A stretch of 64,000 nt of DNA from Mustelus asterias (lineage: Eukaryota). The DNA lies in the NCBI RefSeq assembly GCF_964213995.1, contig NC_135804.1:143344001-143408000 (forward strand), given 5' to 3'. Position 1 is the first letter of the stretch; each line of letters starts with the position of its first letter. The notes below the pieces were generated by a model. That model searched no databases, was not told where the DNA came from, and saw only the letters and a program-made list of their open reading frames with translations. Positions 17,321 through 61,138 of the stretch are shown here, piece after piece. Position numbers and translations under genes: made by a program.

Positions 17321-17434
17321 GATTACAGATGATGCAGTTGCACTTTTTCTCTTTATTTGGATTCAAGAGCAGTACAGCTCAGCGAGTACAGCTCAGCGTT
17401 ATGCTGGTCCGTTGCACATGGTTTACAACAGGGA

Positions 17435-17687
17435 AAGTTTTAACAACACCAGGTTAAAGTCCAACAGGTTTATTTGGTAGCAAATGCCATTAGGTTTTGG
17501 AGCGCTGCTCCTTAGTCAGATGGAGTGGATATCTGCAGATATGGCAGATAACCACTCCATCTGACGAAGGAGCAGCGCTCCGAAAGCTAATGGCATTTGC
17601 TACCAAATAAACCTGTTGGACTTTAACCTGGTGTTGTTAAAACTCTGACTGTGTTTACCCCAGTCCAACGCTGGCATCTCCACATCA
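17435..17687. mobile_element. Palindromic Penelope-like mini-insertion, family 1 (inverted pLTR pair)
   Basis: Arm 17435-17536 is the reverse complement of ~17543-17645; 3' tail on the right arm only; perfect TSD ttacaacaggga at 17423-17434 and 17688-17699. Confidence 0.9.
17557..17593 (+). ncRNA. Minimal type-I hammerhead ribozyme motif
   Basis: CCAU-CUGACGA-A-GGAGC-agc-GCUCC-GAAA-GC-U-A-AUGG: stem I CCAU/AUGG, stem II GGAGC/GCUCC, palindromic AGCU stem III. Confidence 0.85.
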
Positions 17688-17719
17688 TTACAACAGGGAG
17701 CCAGCAATAGTTAAATAGA

Positions 17720-21390: not shown

Positions 21391-21539
21391 GTAAGGAGTC
21401 TAACAACACCAGGTTAAAGTCCAACAGGTTTATTTGGTAGCAAACGCCACTAGCTTTCGGAGCGCTGCTCCTTCGTCAGGTGAGTGGGAGTTCTGTTCAC
21501 AAACTGGGCATAGAAAGACACACAACGTTTGTGTCTTTG
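21391..21539 (-). mobile_element. Penelope-like pLTR, family 1, tail-less, with hammerhead at 21448-21482
   Basis: Minus strand CAC-CUGACGA-A-GGAGC-agc-GCUCC-GAAA-GCU-A-GUG; ends in a short fold-back aaagacacacaacgtttgtgtcttt. Confidence 0.85.
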
Positions 21540-21862: not shown

Positions 21863-22180
21863 AGGGCGGCACAGTGGTTAGCACTGCTGCCTCACAGCGC
21901 CAGGGACCCGATTCAATTCCAGCCTCGGGTCACAGTCTGTGTGGAGTTTGCACATTCTCCCCGTGTCTGTGTGGGATTCCTCCGGTGCTCTGGTTTCCTC
22001 CCATGGTGCAAAGTGTGTGGGTTAGGTGGGTTGACCATGCTAAATTGACCCTCGTGTCAGGGGGATTAGCTCGGGTAAATATGTGAGGTTACGGGAGTAG
22101 GCCCTGGGTGGGATTGTGGTCGGTGCAGACTGGATGGGCCAAATGGCCTCCTTCTGCACTGCAGGAATTCTATAATTCTG
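21863..22180 (+). mobile_element. HE1/V-SINE (tail A)
   Basis: Canonical head, V-domain and CR1-like tail. Confidence 0.9.
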
Positions 22181-22799: not shown

Positions 22800-22885
22800 T
22801 AAAACAGAAAATGCTGGTCAGGCAGCATCTGTGGAGAGAGAGAGAGAGAAACAGAGTTAACTTTTCAAGTCCATTGACCGTCTAC
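22800..22885 (-). mobile_element. Family-2 pLTR fragment
   Basis: aaaacagaaaatgctgg..caggcagcatctgtggagag..aacagagttaac. Confidence 0.55.
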
Positions 22886-23352
22886 AGTAGCAATGGTTTA
22901 GATGTGTAAGTCCCATTTTGGCTTGTACATTTATTATTCTCTAATTTTTGTCGGGATTATTATCAATATTATGCTGGGATGCTGGCTTGATTTACAACTT
23001 ATTTCCACCTATAATCATGACTTCATAATTTCACCCATATCTTCACAAAAAGACCCCTGATCAATATCCATACAGAGAAGGTGCATTTGGTTAGAATCAC
23101 CCCTGGCAACATTCTCACATGTGGAGTGTTGTATGCACAAGAGCACCGACTAAGCCATTTCATGATGCAGTGCTCTGGAGCTCCATCCTCTCATTGAATT
23201 TGGCCAGTTTCCCTTTGTATTTCCCCCAAAACCTCTCCTCCTTGAAGGTAATGAATGCAGTACAAGGGCCTGGCATATGTGGAGTTACTCTGGGACTGAG
23301 TACAGTATTAGTCGCACAGTGATGTAAGAGGGGAGGCACTGGTGTAGTGGTA

Positions 23353-23836
23353 TAGAAACAGAAACATAGAAGATGGGAGCAGGAGGAGGCCATTTGGCCC
23401 TTTGGGCCTGCTCCACCATTCATTACGATCATGGCTGATCATCCAACTCAATAGCCTAATCCTGCTTTCTCCCCATAACCTTTGATCCCATTCGCCCCAA
23501 GTGCTATATCCAGCCGCCTCTTGAATACATTCAATGTTTTGGCATCAACTACTTCCTGTGTGATGAATTTCACAGGCTCACCACTCTCTGGGTGAAGAAA
23601 TGTCTCCTCATCTCCATCTTAAATGGTCTACCCCAAACCCTCAGACTGTGACCCCTGGTTCTGGACTCCCCCACCAATGGGAACATCCTCCGAACATCCA
23701 CGCTGTCTAGTCCTGTTAGAATTATATAAATTTCTATAAGATCCCCCCTCACTCGTCTGAACTCCAGTGAAAACAATCCTAACCTAGTCAATCTCTCCTC
23801 ACACATCAGTCCCGCCATCCCCAGAATCAGCCTGTA
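23353..23836 (-). mobile_element. CR1 3' fragment
   Basis: GLMCEERLTRLGLFSLEFRRVRGDLIE...FFTQRVVSL; tail agaaacagaaacatagaa. Confidence 0.9.
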
Positions 23837-23870
23837 TCAGTATAAGGAGAGGCAGTGGCGTAGTGGTATT

Positions 23871-25068
23871 AGAACGTACAGGGTAAATGGTAGGAGTCTG
23901 AAGAGTGCAGTTGAACAGAGGGATCTGGGAATACAGGTACAGAATTCCCTAAAAGTGACGTCACAGGTGGATAGGGTTGTAAAGAGTGCCTTTGTTACAT
24001 TGGCCTTTATAAATCGGAGTATCGAGTATAAAAGTTGGAGTGTTATGGTAAGGTTATATAATGATGTGGAGATGCCGGCGTTGGACTGGGGTAAACACAG
24101 TAAGAAGTTTAACAACACCAGGTTAAAGTCCAACAGGTTTATTTGGTAGCAAAAGCCACACAAGCTTTCGAGGCTCTGAGCCCCTTCTTCAGGTGAGTGA
24201 AGAAGGGGCACCTGTGACATCCACCTGTGACATCACTTTTAGGGAATTCTGTACCTGTATTCCCAGATCCCTCTGTTCAACTGCACTCTTCAGACTCTTA
24301 CCATTTACCCTGTACGTTCTAATACCACTACGCCACTGCCTCCCCTTATACTGATACAGGCTGATTCTGGGGATGGTGGGACTGATGTGTGAGGAGAGAT
24401 TGACCTGAAGAAGGGGCTCAGAGCCTCGAAAGCTTGTGTGGCTTTTGCTACCAAATAAACCTGTTGGACTTTAACCTGGTGTTGTTAAACTTCTTACAAG
24501 GTTATATAAGGCATTGGTGAGGCCGAATTTGGAGTATTGTGGACAGTTTTGGTCACCTAGTTACAGGAAGGATGTAAATAAGGTTGAAAGAGTGCAGAGA
24601 AGGTTCACAAGGATGTTGCCGGGACTTGAGAAGCTGAGTTACAGAGAGAGATTGAATAGGTTGGGACTTTATTCCCTGGAGCGTAGAAGATTGAGGGGAG
24701 ATTTGATAGAGGTGTATAAGATTTTGATGGGTATAGATAGAGTGAATGCAAGCAGGCTTTTTCCGCTGAGGCTAGGGGAGAAAAAAACCAGAGGGCATGG
24801 GTTAAGGGTGAAAGGAGAAAAGTTTAAAGGCAATATTAGGGGGGGCTTCTTCACGCAGAGAGTGGTGGGAGTGTGGAATGAGCTGCCGGATAAAGTGGTA
24901 AATGCTTTAAGATTTAAGAAAAACTTGGACGGGTTCATGGATGAGAGGCGTGTGGAGGGATATGGTCCAAGTGCAGGTCAGTGGGACTAGGCAAAAAATG
25001 GTTCGGCACAGACAAGAAGGGCCAAAAGGCCTGTTTCTGAGCTGTAATTTTCTATGGTTCTATGGTTC
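23871..25068 (+). mobile_element. CR1 3' fragment interrupted by a PLE insertion
   Basis: QVDRVVKSAFVTLAFINRSIEYKSW..RLY, resuming LVRPNLEYCGQFWSP...; tail (ttctatgg)n. Confidence 0.9.
24062..24497. mobile_element. Palindromic Penelope-like insertion carrying a captured inverted copy of flanking DNA
   Basis: Tailed minus pLTR 24062-24199; 24219-24404 = reverse complement of 23787-23972; tail-less plus pLTR 24403-24497; TSD aaggttatataa at 24050-24061 and 24498-24509. Confidence 0.92.
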
Positions 25069-25390
25069 TATTGCTAGACTAGTACTCCAGAGATCCAGGA
25101 TAATGTCCTGGCGATCTGGGTTTAAATTCCACTACGGCATGGCACCTGGTGAAATTTGAACTCGAAAATAAAAAAATTAAACGTCTAATGATGACCATTG
25201 TCGATTGTCTTAAAAACCCAGCTGGTTCACTAATGTCCTTTAGGAAAGGAAATCTGCCATCCTTACCCGATCTGGCATATATGTGACTCCAGATCCAAAG
25301 CAATGTGGTTGACTCTTAATTACCTTCAGGGATGAGAAATAAATGCTGGCTCAGCCAGTGAAGCCCACATCCCATGAACAAACTAAAAAG
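25069..25390 (+). mobile_element. SINE family C body (heads stranded at ~23330 and ~23846)
   Basis: ttgctagactagtactccagag...aataaatgctggctcagccagtgaagcccacatccc. Confidence 0.8.
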
Positions 25391-25712
25391 AAGAGAATAC
25401 ATGACCCATAGTTAGGGGTCAGTCCAGTGTTGGACAGAGCTGTGTGTGCAAGCAAGCATGGAGAAAGCGTCAAGTTTGAACCCTTCACTGTATATATACG
25501 CAGTTCTTGTAGTTAATAAGTACATACAGTTAACCTATTTAAGACTACGAGAGCTTCATTAAGACGTGCCAAATGGTACTCAACACCCGACAGAAATAAC
25601 GTGTGGATTCCAGTTCCACAGGTCTCCAAAGCCATTTTGTATGCAAACCATGGCTGTGAATGTTGACAGGCTCTTATTACTGTGGACATGAACAATCCTG
25701 CACCCCCCCCTC

Positions 25713-48140: not shown

Positions 48141-49625
48141 CAAGGTAGAATGGGAAAATTGATAAGTATACAAAAGGACAAGATTAAAGTGAATGGAAAA
48201 GATTCGTACAAATCATGTGCAATGTAAAACAGATTGCTGATTCATTATGAGCCCATTATGCATTTCTATGCTGGCAACTTGCCCCACAAAGCAAACTACC
48301 ACAAGCAACAAAATAAACATAATTCCAGCCATGGTTCCATCCTCTATTCACAAGATAATTGTGGATCTCAAAAGCCATCTCGCTCACTTCATCTCATGCA
48401 TCCCAGAAAGACACACAAACGTACACATTGGAAGCAAGTTTAGGCCATTCAGCCCCTCGAGCCTGCTCCACCATTTGGTAACATTGCCTTCATATACCAG
48501 TGACTAGAATTTAAAAGCAGTTAATTGGCTGTGAAAGTGATTTGGGGCATTTGGAAAGGTGTTGTATAAATGTAGGTTTTGTCTTTCTTACATTATATCT
48601 GCATAAATGAACAGCAAAGTGACAGTGACAATAGTGAAATTGGAGACCCAGTGCTGATTCTCCCAGGACAATTAATCACAGAGCAAGCAACTGACGTTCG
48701 GGAAGTGGCTTGAAGGAAATCACTACATTTACAAAATGATTCAATTCTGCGACCAAGCTCTCCCACAACACCCCCCAAAGCTCACCTTAAAACCCACCCC
48801 AAACCCTTTCTAACCTGCCTCAGCTCCTACTCTAACCTGCTCCCCCAACTCCCTTCTAATGTTCCCCCAACACCTCATCCAATGTCCCCCCTCTCAATGC
48901 CCTCCAACCTTCCCCCAAACCCACTAACCTCCAACAATCTCCCCATCCAACCTCCCCTTCATGCCACTCTAACCTCCTCCACACCCCACCTCATTTCCTC
49001 CCCCACAACTTACCCCAAACACACACACTTAACATTTTTTGATACAAGAACGCTCTCCTGACAGTTGTTGTGCTGCTATTGACCTTCACACAGGCTTTTC
49101 AAAACAATAAAAATCAGAACCACAACGCTGGCAAAGATGAGGAGCAGCAGCGCAGTAACAAGTAACATTGACACAGACACTGACAGACCAGCTTTAGAGA
49201 AATTGGAACATTCAGCTTGACAGATCTGTTTCTTTTTTGTCAAGTCTATAGTTCTGGCTGCTCAGTCCAGACAATGAGAAACTCCTTTTACAACACAGAG
49301 GTCAGGCTACCCCAGTCCTAGACCTCGGTGTTTGGCCCATCTGCACTCCACTCTCTCCAGGTCTGTGGCATATCCATTACTCTTACCAAACTGGAGGAAG
49401 GCTCAATGGCATGTTGGAATGACAAAAGTATATTGCAAAAAGAAACACACTTTTTGTTTGTTTTAAAAGTATAATCTCAGAAATATCATTTGTCAGAAAT
49501 ATACATTAAGCCAAACAATCCCGATTTAAATCTCCGAACAACTCTCTGGATCAATGACAATTGTGGAACTGAATCATCCAGATCATTTATTGCAGATTCC
49601 AGTGAATCTGCGTTTAGAATGTATC

Positions 49626-49685
49626 GTAAGAAGTCTCACAACACCAGGTTAAAGTCCAACAGGTTTATTTGGTAGCAAATACCAT
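49626..49685 (-). mobile_element. Short tail-less PLE family-1 stub with reiterated target site
   Basis: gtaagaagtctcacaacaccaggttaaagtccaacagg...; TSD ttagaatgtat at 49614-49624 and 49706-49716 with two extra partial copies between. Confidence 0.85.
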
Positions 49686-50699
49686 GAATGTATGTAGAAT
49701 GTATGTTAGAATGTATAAACAGCCCTAAGCTGGACAGAGGGAAAATCAGCCAAGGTTACTTCTCTCAGTAGCATTGCTGAGGATTCTGGACCTCTGATGG
49801 GGTCCTCGACTCTTGTGGGTGGGCCGCTGTCTTTCATACAACAGAAACATTGGTGGCAGCCAGTTAAAAGGTGGACCGACATGGGGAGAACCCCCGCACA
49901 GACAGTAACCCAAGCTGGAAATTAAACCCAGGTCCCTGCACTAAGAGGCAGGAGGGCTAACCACTGGGCCACCGTGGCCAAGAAAACCATTGGCCAGATT
50001 CCCAGTAAATAATTACTATGCTGCTCCAATAAATGGCTTGAAACACCAAAGAGAAAAGAGTATCTTCTATGCACCAATGTATTACTTCTGTTTCACATAC
50101 TTAACCCTCTTGTTGGATCACTAAGTTGAATCACTAAGTCCTTTTGGTGCCAGTTTACAAAATTTTAATGCAATGTATTTTCATCTCCTGGAAACTGGAT
50201 TCAGACTGCCTCAGGTTGAAGTGAAGGGTTCAGCCTCCTGAGGCCAGAAAGGATAGGTAAGTGGGAAACAGTACGGCACCTTCTTCATGACATTTAAGAC
50301 CTATGTTAACAGGGCAAACATCCGTGTGTCTCCGTTACCAAACAGATTGAAGAACTGCTAATGAGCAGTCCAGAGTCCGAACCAAGAAGGAATCATTACA
50401 AAAATGAATCTCAAATCAGATACGGAATGCTAAATATAGGGAGGGAAAGGAAGATTGAGTTAAGAAAGAAAAATAGAAAGGAATAAGAAGAAATAAGTCT
50501 CCAATTAAAGTCTGAAGGAATGATAATCCAAACTCAATACTGTAACCATGAAATGGTATACTGCATTCATAGTAACTTGGTTCAAAGCAGTTTAAAATAA
50601 TTTATCAGTGCTGTGCTAATTAGTTTTCTGTGCTAACAATGTTGTTTGCCATTAATAATGAACAGTCAAATCAATGAAATAACGCTTAGGTTCAAATGG

Positions 50700-59370: not shown

Positions 59371-60298
59371 TGGGTTAGTTGAAAATTTCAAAAACTGAGA
59401 GATTGATGGATTTTTGTTAAGTAAGGATATTAAAGGTTATGGAGCCATGGCAGGCAGGTTGAGTGGAGATACTGGCCAACCATGATGTACTGAATGGTAT
59501 AGCAAGCTGGAGTGGCTGAATGTGCTCATCCGGTTTCTATATTCCTATACTTGTCCTCCAGGTGTGTCAGTGCCTCCATGACAGTAGGTCAGGTAGTTGT
59601 GACCCTCTTCCCAGTTTTCCTTGACACTTCTGCAAAGATGTTGTTTCCTGACAGATGATTCCGTGATCTATCGGCTCTTGATTGTTTTAAGAGTTGCTAC
59701 TGGGAGGATTGTGTGTGTGATGGGTGACTGTTTTTGGTACCTGAGGGTCAGCAGTTAAGTTGACCATAGGCACATTTTTGATTTGATTTATTGTCACCTG
59801 TTTTGGTATACAGTGAAAAGTATTGTTTCTTGCGCACTCTACAGACAAAGCAAACCATTCATAGAGAAGGAAAGGAGACAGTGCAGAATGTAATGTTCCA
59901 GTCATAGCTAGGGTGTAGAGAGAGATCACCTGGAGAAAGGTAAGTGAAGTGGGGTAGGATTGTCGAGAGAGGATCAGATGCAAGGGCAGGTTGTTGGCTT
60001 TCAGTGGCCTCCCTTGTCTCAATGCTGGATCCCTCGATGCCTATGAATGAGGATCCCCCTTCTCCACTGCCAACCCTGACAATGTTTGCTGGTTGACGTT
60101 CATGAGACATTGGAGACCAATACGAGTCTAGTTTAATCTCGGAGCCACCATTCAATCCCAATGGACTCAGGGATGATTGGATTCCAATGACACATTGACA
60201 AGTCTCATTGCTTTCCCACTGCTGGCAGGTGAATTTTCCATGTCAGCCCCTTCCTGTCGCTCATTTAATGCAGGATACTTTTCCCGGAGTTGGAAACA

Positions 60299-61138
60299 GT
60301 AAGAGTTTTAACAACACCAGGTTAAAGTCCAACAGGTTTATTTGGTAGCAAATACCATTAACTTTCGGAGCGCTGCTCCTTCGTCAGATGGAGTGAAATG
60401 TGCTCTCAAACAGTGCATAGAGACACAAAATCAAGTTACAGAATACTGATTAGAATGCGAATCCCTACAGCCAACCAGAGCTTAAAGATACAGACAATGT
60501 GGGTGGAGGGAGCATTAAGCACAGGTTAAAGAGATGTGTATTGTCTCCAGACAGGATAGTCCGCAAGTCCAGGAGGCAAGCTGTGGGGGTTACTGATAAT
60601 GTGACATAAATCCAACATCCTGGTTTAGGCCGTCCTCATGTGTGCGGAACTTGGCTATCAGTTTCTGCTCAGTGACTCTGCGCTGTCGTGTGTCATGAAG
60701 GCCGTCTTGGAGAACGCTTACCTGAAGATCAGAGGCTGAATGCCCGTGACCGCTGAAGTGCTCCCCCACAGGAAGAGAACAGTCTTGCCTGGTGATTGTC
60801 GAGTGGTATTCATTCATCCATTGTCGTAGCGTCTGCATGGTTTCCCCAATGTACCATGCCTCGGGACATCCTTTCCTGCTGCATATCAGGTAGACAACGT
60901 TGGCCGAGTTGCCAAGAGTATGTACCGTGTACCTGGTGGATGGTGTTCTCACGTGAGATGATGGCATCCGTGTCGATGATCCGCCACGTCTTGCAGAGGT
61001 TGCTATGGCAGGGTTGTGTGGTGTCGTGGTCACTGTTCTCCTGAAGGCTGGGTAGTTTGCTGCGGACAATGGTCTGTTTGAGGTTGCGCGGTTGTTTGAA
61101 GGCAAGAAGAGGGGGTGTGGGGATAGCCTTGGCCTTGG
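60299..61138 (-). mobile_element. 5'-truncated Penelope-like element (Neptune-type) with frameshifted GIY-YIG endonuclease (60590-61130) and pLTR hammerhead (60355-60391)
   Basis: AFKQPRNLKQTIVRSKL..PCHSNLCKT (Cys-rich linker), NVVYLIC..CPEAWYIGET..LRQWMNEY..PVGEHF..EQKLI...GLN; TSD ggagttg(g/c)aaaca at 60286-60298 and 61139-61151. Confidence 0.92.

Follow-up and report, generated by a model that had tools for sequence, protein, structure and literature searches.

The origin of the head-to-head inverted ends of Penelope-like elements (PLEs) is stated to be open in PMC8557442 and PMC11167929 (statements on the literature, here and below, refer to the sections of each source that were covered). 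One such insertion in the shark Mustelus asterias carries, at its point of inversion, an inverted copy of DNA from beside its own landing site, which raises the question of where the junction between the two ends was made and by which polymerase. The insertion lies in a 64,000-nucleotide stretch of contig NC_135804.1 (assembly GCF_964213995.1, positions 143,344,001–143,408,000, forward strand), here termed the window, in whose coordinates all positions are given.

Architecture of the insertion and identity of its ends

The insert is 436 bp long and is enclosed by a 12-bp direct repeat, AAGGTTATATAA, identified in a repeat search of positions 22800–25600 and located on the plus strand at 24050–24061 (left) and 24498–24509 (right). 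Inside this target-site duplication (TSD) lie, in order, a tailed Penelope end (pLTR) of 138 nt on the minus strand (24062–24199), of which 24062–24099 form the 38-nt tail; short fold-back pieces; an inverted copy, 186 bp long, of left-flank DNA; and, on the plus strand, a tail-less Penelope end of 95 nt (24403–24497), whose first two nucleotides (24403–24404, AC) are common to the capture and the right arm. The two arms are complementary at 95 of 95 nt (24100–24194 against 24403–24497), and the coordinates given in the initial annotation for an inverted pair with a spacer inside a 12-bp TSD hold. No open reading frame (ORF) is present in this copy (24062–24497). The arrangement is real in the assembly, and the insertion is apparently young. 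Among the five inverted repeats of the window (at least 40 nt, at least 90% identity, at most 5 kb apart), the longest is that between 24219–24404 and 23787–23972, the remaining four being the arm pair and dispersed repeat copies.

The 12-mer is found only once where other copies of the host repeat join position 24049 to 24498, in short-read contigs from three of the four runs mapped for such empty-site joints (X19, 9; X20, 6; X21, 2; X22, 0). Its single presence in these empty paralogous copies marks the 12-mer as duplicated target DNA. Runs X19 and X20 represent one sample, which may be the source of the assembly; in all, 943 joints were counted on a 2-kb stretch in the short-read contigs.

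The published PLE pattern comprises an inverted 5′-truncated copy, a 30–40 bp tail on one end and a short TSD (PMC3846280, PMC8557442). Two relatives within the window, at 60.3–61.1 kb (60296–61138, minus strand) and 36.9–37.6 kb (36951–37612), run from the same terminal repeat into the end of an ORF with a GIY-YIG-like domain; both are 5′-truncated PLE copies with TSDs of 11–13 bp that reach the endonuclease region, and in the longer insertion, at 60296–61138, the terminal repeat follows the ORF end. This ORF end has two cysteines between its VVY and YIG motifs (VVY-x-x-C-xxxx-C-xxx-YIG) and a later HxxxxxH, and a CCHH type of GIY-YIG domain is described for PLEs in PMC8557442. Atlas matches at 0.94–0.96 were to GIY-YIG clusters in which the family is carried by 17–42% of members, while Pfam assigned none of its families to the 182-amino-acid GIY-YIG-like piece. 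The longest PLE copies traced in the window end before the reverse transcriptase (RT). A scan for the terminal repeat returned no loci in metagenome contigs and none in viral contigs.

Both arms carry the minimal hammerhead motif of PLEs, a putative ribozyme with the features given in PMC4209133. In the left arm (24158–24196, minus strand) the motif consists of CUGAAGA, an extra A, a 7-bp helix II, GAAA, a palindromic AGCU and three of four helix I pairs; the second motif, in the right arm (24401–24439, plus strand), has only two of the four helix I pairs. The motif scan recovered both arms and five other pLTR copies, with one extra match outside any pLTR. Rfam gave no hammerhead match, and the left arm is predicted to fold no better than shuffled sequences (z 0.32). 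Judged by sequence, the arms agree with the pattern of endonuclease-bearing (EN+) PLEs on every feature that could be tested (GIY-YIG CCHH, inversion, tail and TSD), and the earlier assignment of the ends as Penelope-like is borne out by CCHH relatives, a one-sided tail and a hammerhead motif. That the insert represents two 5′-truncated Penelope-like ends, head to head within one 12-bp target duplication, is here taken jointly with a host-repair origin of the 186-bp copy, and this combined reading is moderately probable.

BLAST within the window identified 11 related ends at eight insertions. Five of the 11 aligned ends are tailed and six are tail-less, stopping 38 nt earlier. Each of the three inverted pairs combines one tailed with one tail-less arm, and two of the three solo tail-less ends have their own TSD (49.6 kb and 60.3 kb). 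TSDs of 8–13 bp are present at seven of the eight insertions.

The captured flank segment and its source

The captured segment (24219–24404, minus strand) is the reverse complement of 23787–23972, identical at 182 of 186 nt in an ungapped alignment (BLAST, E 1e-88). The four mismatches agree exactly with the earlier count, as does the distance of 77 bp between the end of the source and the TSD. The source (23787–23972, plus strand) runs from the terminal part of a minus-strand LINE through a SINE head into the beginning of a plus-strand LINE. The first of these host repeats is a LINE 3′ part (23360–23833, minus strand) with homologues in the window, and contigs of its family depart at the position matching 23834. 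The second, a SINE head of about 30 bp (23840–23870, plus strand), has a body that resumes near 25063, and run X1 has loose ends at 24321 and 24351. The third is the LINE that received the insertion; its left part (23871–24061, plus strand) resumes at 24498 and extends to about 25064, and it is this repeat that contains the empty-site joints from 24049 to 24498. We take the first and third repeats to be LINEs of the CR1 type, and the second is labelled a SINE on our assumption.

Runs X19, X20, X21 and X1 were mapped for departures from the segment. Multi-copy contigs leave it at positions matching 23834, 23840 and 23870 of the source, as fits a junction of three repeats, and within the window only the source and the copy match the core 23810–23900 over its full length; a donor among generic repeats elsewhere is thus unlikely, in agreement with the initial annotation. 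The summed depth over the SINE-head part, 1,182–2,033 in X19, derives from multi-copy pieces and speaks neither for nor against uniqueness. A 30-nt direct repeat of the SINE head (23324–23353 and 23840–23869, 83% identical) flanks the minus-strand LINE and may be an old, unusually long target duplication. The copied DNA consists of dead repeats, and we propose no function for it.

The mismatches, at source positions 23814, 23848, 23893 and 23959, are all transitions, two of them at CpG. At 23848 the source is derived (all three in-window relatives have G), whereas the copy is derived at 23814 (one of one relative) and at 23893 (two of two relatives). At 23959 the relatives, which are about 70% identical, read T and A. 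At this site both passes over the flank described below (at 24219 and 24232) carry T, against C in today's source. Independent decay of two CpGs on one strand is rather unlikely, only one more CpG of the source, copy and arms having decayed; damage to this base in the template, or copying from another allele, would explain the shared T. Capture and source disagree at 4 of 186 positions, compared with 0 of 107 for the arms and TSD, which is not a significant difference (Fisher p 0.30).

Junction tracts and a candidate mechanism

Each base of 24198–24404 can be traced to the left arm or the left flank, the successive pieces overlapping by 2, 1, 6, 2–3 and 2 nt. The first tract, of 12 nt in element sense (24198–24209, plus strand), is the reverse complement of 24180–24191, which confirms the fold-back noted earlier, and corresponds to a 2-nt primer and 10 new nucleotides; the surrounding 24170–24214 form a hairpin with a predicted energy of −13.5 kcal/mol. 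A second tract, CACCTG (24209–24214, plus strand), is inferred from its match both to the element end at 24190–24195 and to the flank at 23964–23969. The same position begins a 13-nt first pass over the flank (24209–24221, plus strand), which is repeated at 24222–24234 and shares its CpG-site change with the long copy. The aborted start proposed in the initial annotation is therefore present, with the corrections that it is 13 nt long and that its first 6 nt also match the element end. The second pass, 24219–24404, overlaps the first by (A)TC. An origin of 24209–24221 in a later tandem duplication of 13 bp is unlikely, since it would require an exact start at the junction and a chance match to the next bases of the source.

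At other loci in X19, X20 and X1, the fold-back start 24190–24209 leads into an ordinary right arm; X1 is a different organism, and one of its contigs with this junction has a depth of 159. The first tract is thus a recurrent junction of the family, situated at the 5′ edge of the hammerhead, and fits either a host polymerase or an RT.

The capture appears to have landed at CAGGTG (23964–23969, plus strand), a microhomology shared with the element end. On the top strand this word occurs only at 23964 and 24190 between positions 22001 and 26500. Among 995 start points in 23050–24049, 23969 gives the sole 6-nt match to the fold-back on the last 15 or the last 25 nt of the left arm. Over a 2-kb range the matches number 3 (last 15 nt) and 8 (last 25 nt) in 1,995 start points, and against the whole 138-nt arm they rise to 30 of 995; this test was set up after the match had been seen. 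The 6-nt match accounts for a capture that starts 80 bp from the break rather than beside it. The right arm begins 3 nt (ACC) upstream of the fold-back point.

The flank of the landing site is copied inside the junction, and neither a master element nor a finished cDNA could have supplied it; the junction must then have been made at the target. For this insertion, the sequence suggests that the head-to-head mirror structure was assembled at the landing site. Assembly there would favour priming from both nicks followed by end joining over the self-priming on an antisense template by which palindromes are explained in PMC3846280. The locus is one clean example, and its worth lies in this evidence that a head-to-head junction forms at the target.

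The capture was probably, though far from certainly, the work of host break-repair synthesis during the joining, at the target, of two cDNAs that had been primed separately. Every template is on one strand and the copied segment is inverted, and this puts the event in the hairpin class of templated insertions (PMC7165422). From the pieces we infer a direction, timing and set of enzymes as follows. Nicks staggered by 12 bp would allow the top strand to prime a cDNA at the tailed start site (24062–24199) and the bottom strand to prime one at the tail-less site (24497–24403), leaving two cDNA 3′ ends that share no good homology. The top-strand end would prime on element DNA through 2 nt and halt after 10 nt; a second priming, through 1 nt, would write a 5-nt tract, ACCTG. 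The new CACCTG end could then pair with the nearest CAGGTG on its own strand (23964–23969), bared by resection of the bottom strand. Seven nucleotides would be written on the flank before the end slipped back through (A)TC and copied 183 nt away from the break. On release it would join the right cDNA through 2 nt (AC/GT), and fill-in and ligation would finish the arms and the TSD. We favour a Pol theta-like enzyme for the short tracts and, for the 183-nt tract, a processive enzyme of the Pol delta type.

For the right arm, a second cDNA primed on its own is a better reading than the jump back to the element that the initial annotation had proposed. Solo tail-less ends with their own TSDs indicate independent priming of such ends, and in the anole the PLE protein cleaves both strands and extends each of them, starting at two adjacent RNA sites whose spacing equals the tail (PMC11167929). 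The earlier proposal that templates were switched several times in one integration otherwise stands in part: a local copy and several switches are present, most likely made during integration. A local transcript, also proposed as a template, is less likely, given that the step preceding the capture produced element-sense sequence, for which the template was DNA.

Several points count against the host-synthesis model. The 6-nt match needs a further, hypothetical 5-nt re-priming, and a direct 1-nt jump with a coincidental match is possible. The junctions can also be read in reverse, as an invasion of the left flank by the right cDNA through 2 nt, a weaker priming. A simple template on the same strand does not explain the T that both passes share at 23959. 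The long capture occurs at only one of the eight insertions, and its divergence is 4 of 186 against 0 of 107. The yeast data on which the analogy draws come from nuclease breaks and not from retro-integration.

Alternative origins and comparison with known systems

As the initial annotation acknowledged, the polymerase cannot be told from sequence alone, and the most probable of the alternatives, itself unlikely, is that the element's own RT made all the jumps (from RNA to its own cDNA, to flank DNA and to element DNA) in one integration. The enzyme would prime from both nicks and land on target DNA through short words of its own end (CACCTG). The jumps do begin at the end of the cDNA, where the RT is located, and the same fold-back start recurs at other loci, in contigs of X19, X20 and X1 that pass through 24209 into a normal right arm. 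Self-priming and template jumps have been inferred for PLEs by Arkhipova et al., and dissociation of the growing cDNA with pairing to nearby DNA is cited by Zumalave et al. for templated insertions of L1. PMC11167929, however, reports cleavage and first-strand extension, second-strand synthesis and repair being unvalidated there, and Nam et al. (PMC10191854) hold DNA polymerases responsible for the L1 cases. Synthesis over 183 nt of flank also requires an opened flank, which points to host resection, and the pattern matches that of breaks made with no RT involved (PMC7165422, PMC11724301). The broader proposition, which we regard as similarly doubtful, would be that this shark Penelope family completes its insertions with its own telomerase-related RT, acting as an end-joining polymerase that is DNA-templated and hops between microhomologies, and that inverted copies of host DNA near the target are in this way systematically written into the germ line. 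The description of these elements in the initial annotation as agents of local inverted duplication is too strong for a window in which one of eight insertions has such a copy and for a by-product also seen with L1.

The timing of the capture could be different. A perfect 95-bp palindrome with a short spacer is a plausible break site, and such a simple head-to-head palindrome might have been inserted first, a later cut at its hairpin centre being mended with DNA from nearby; other loci in the short-read contigs do have simple junctions that begin at the same point. The right arm, starting 3 nt (ACC) upstream of the fold-back point, is nevertheless not the remnant of a simple junction, and templated fillers are also found at solo insertions that have no palindrome (49.7 kb and 21.5 kb). 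Under later repair, moreover, the divergence of the capture should not exceed that of the arms; the trend, which is not significant, runs the other way (4 of 186 against 0 of 107). This sequence of events is improbable. Slightly less probable still is a template other than the broken end itself, either the homologous chromosome or a local plus-strand transcript. An allelic template would account for all four differences together, including the T of both passes and the family-state G at 23848, and co-insertion of a pre-mRNA has been reported once for L1 (PMC10191854). An allelic difference of 2% over 186 bp is high, however, and the copy is derived at 23814 and 23893, as expected from decay after insertion. 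For a transcript, the neighbouring tracts are DNA-templated, and no host coding exon was found: none of 120 scanned ORFs (of the 193 non-repeat ORFs of at least 55 amino acids) reached the Pfam cut-off and one gave a weak match below it, in a scan that is weak for short exons.

An assembly artefact from fold-back chimeric reads is very improbable. None of the 32 contig pieces listed per mapping bridges the private junctions (beside 248,988 and 1,770 further pieces in the two mappings, with pieces of at most 60 nt in the second), a result from contigs fragmented at repeats that has low power and, for the five runs together, does not amount to support for an artefact. A chimera would be expected to be an exact mirror from one turning point, not five ordered pieces. 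The four transitions between copy and source, two of them at CpG, have family polarity on both sides, and the perfect TSD has its empty form in paralogous repeats.

The insertion resembles the EN+ PLE insertions of PMC3846280 and PMC8557442 in its head-to-head arms, 38-nt tail on one arm, 12-bp TSD, hammerhead motif and GIY-YIG relative, and differs from them in having insertion-site DNA at the inversion point and in this copy being devoid of an ORF. Host DNA between pLTRs is described in PMC3846280 as spacers and an NRPS gene, with no copies of the adjacent flank in the sections covered. No report of flank capture in PLE junctions was found in literature other than supplements and most subscription papers (among the latter the older Evgen'ev and Arkhipova reviews), and the sections covered of PMC9977147, PMC6155905 and bioRxiv 10.64898/2026.07.22.740005 contain nothing on PLE junctions.

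Closely similar outcomes are known for human L1. Fold-back inverted duplications of 52–220 bp were described by Nam et al. (PMC10191854) in three cases, with one more combined with twin priming (0.3% and 0.1%, respectively), a like by-product accompanies about 0.3–0.6% of L1 insertions, and inverted duplications from resected ends arise at L1-induced breaks (bioRxiv 10.1101/2024.12.14.628481). The present insertion shares with this class an inverted copy of neighbouring DNA of similar size within a TSD that is kept, and 2-bp microhomologies at the joints; host synthesis is proposed for both. In the L1 fold-back class, however, the free reciprocal genomic end folds back and the duplication abuts the target site, whereas here element sequence flanks the copy on both sides: it lies between two cDNAs and was apparently primed by element sequence, across the cDNA and TSD. 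Templated insertions of L1 (22 cases, mostly shorter than 250 bp and within 15 bp of the site; bioRxiv 10.1101/2024.08.27.596794) likewise use a local genomic template of less than 250 bp, and twin priming likewise joins two cDNAs by microcomplementarity; here, the source lies 77 bp from the TSD, and the arms are two copies of one element end, begun at two fixed sites, rather than copies of two parts of one RNA.

HO-induced breaks in yeast (PMC11724301) and Pol theta insertions (PMC7165422) resemble the present junction in microhomology-primed hairpin synthesis, aborted rounds and capture through about 2 nt. They are made at nuclease breaks with no cDNA, and their tracts are mostly 3–30 bp for Pol theta and up to about 150 bp in yeast, against 183 nt here. 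Aborted rounds that build a longer microhomology are a signature of Pol theta, whose primary tracts rarely exceed 10 bp (PMC7165422) and whose tracts extend to about 30 nt (PMC11724301). Its templated insertions are iterated short tracts of 3–30 bp with templates typically within 30 bp (PMC7165422); the tracts of 10, 5 and 7 nt are within this range of lengths, the 183-nt tract and its distance are outside it, and Pol theta on its own is a poor fit for this tract. In yeast, fold-back inversions span 2 to about 150 bp, have inverted microhomologies as their priming sites, need Pol32 and show a median capture microhomology of 2 bp (PMC11724301). The outcome is thus already known for human L1 and for yeast breaks, and what is new is the sandwiched arrangement in a PLE. 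Also new is the start of the capture at CAGGTG, common to the element end and the flank.

Templated filler is present at four of the eight insertions in the window, the other three having short fillers, at 17.5, 21.5 and 49.7 kb. An inverted pLTR pair of an older subfamily (17423–17699), with a perfect 12-bp TSD, has fold-back pieces of 8–9 and 7 nt copied from the end of its tail-less arm. A solo tail-less end at 21391–21538, for which no convincing TSD was found, has a 9-nt fold-back at its 5′ end. The solo tail-less end at 49614–49716, with an 11-bp TSD, has direct copies of the TSD of 8 and 10 nt at its 5′ junction, a filler that resembles direct-repeat templated insertions. The arms of an inverted pair at 42179–42425, of the same subfamily as 24062–24497 and in the opposite order, are joined directly with no filler, inside a TSD of about 10–12 bp with one mismatch. 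The genome contains very many such junctions, and their fillers could document, in natural insertions, the final step of PLE integration. The window also has two weak tRNA-like Rfam matches, at 8969–9041 (plus strand, 32 bits) and 46484–46556 (minus strand, 36.5 bits), which are probably pseudogenes or SINE heads.
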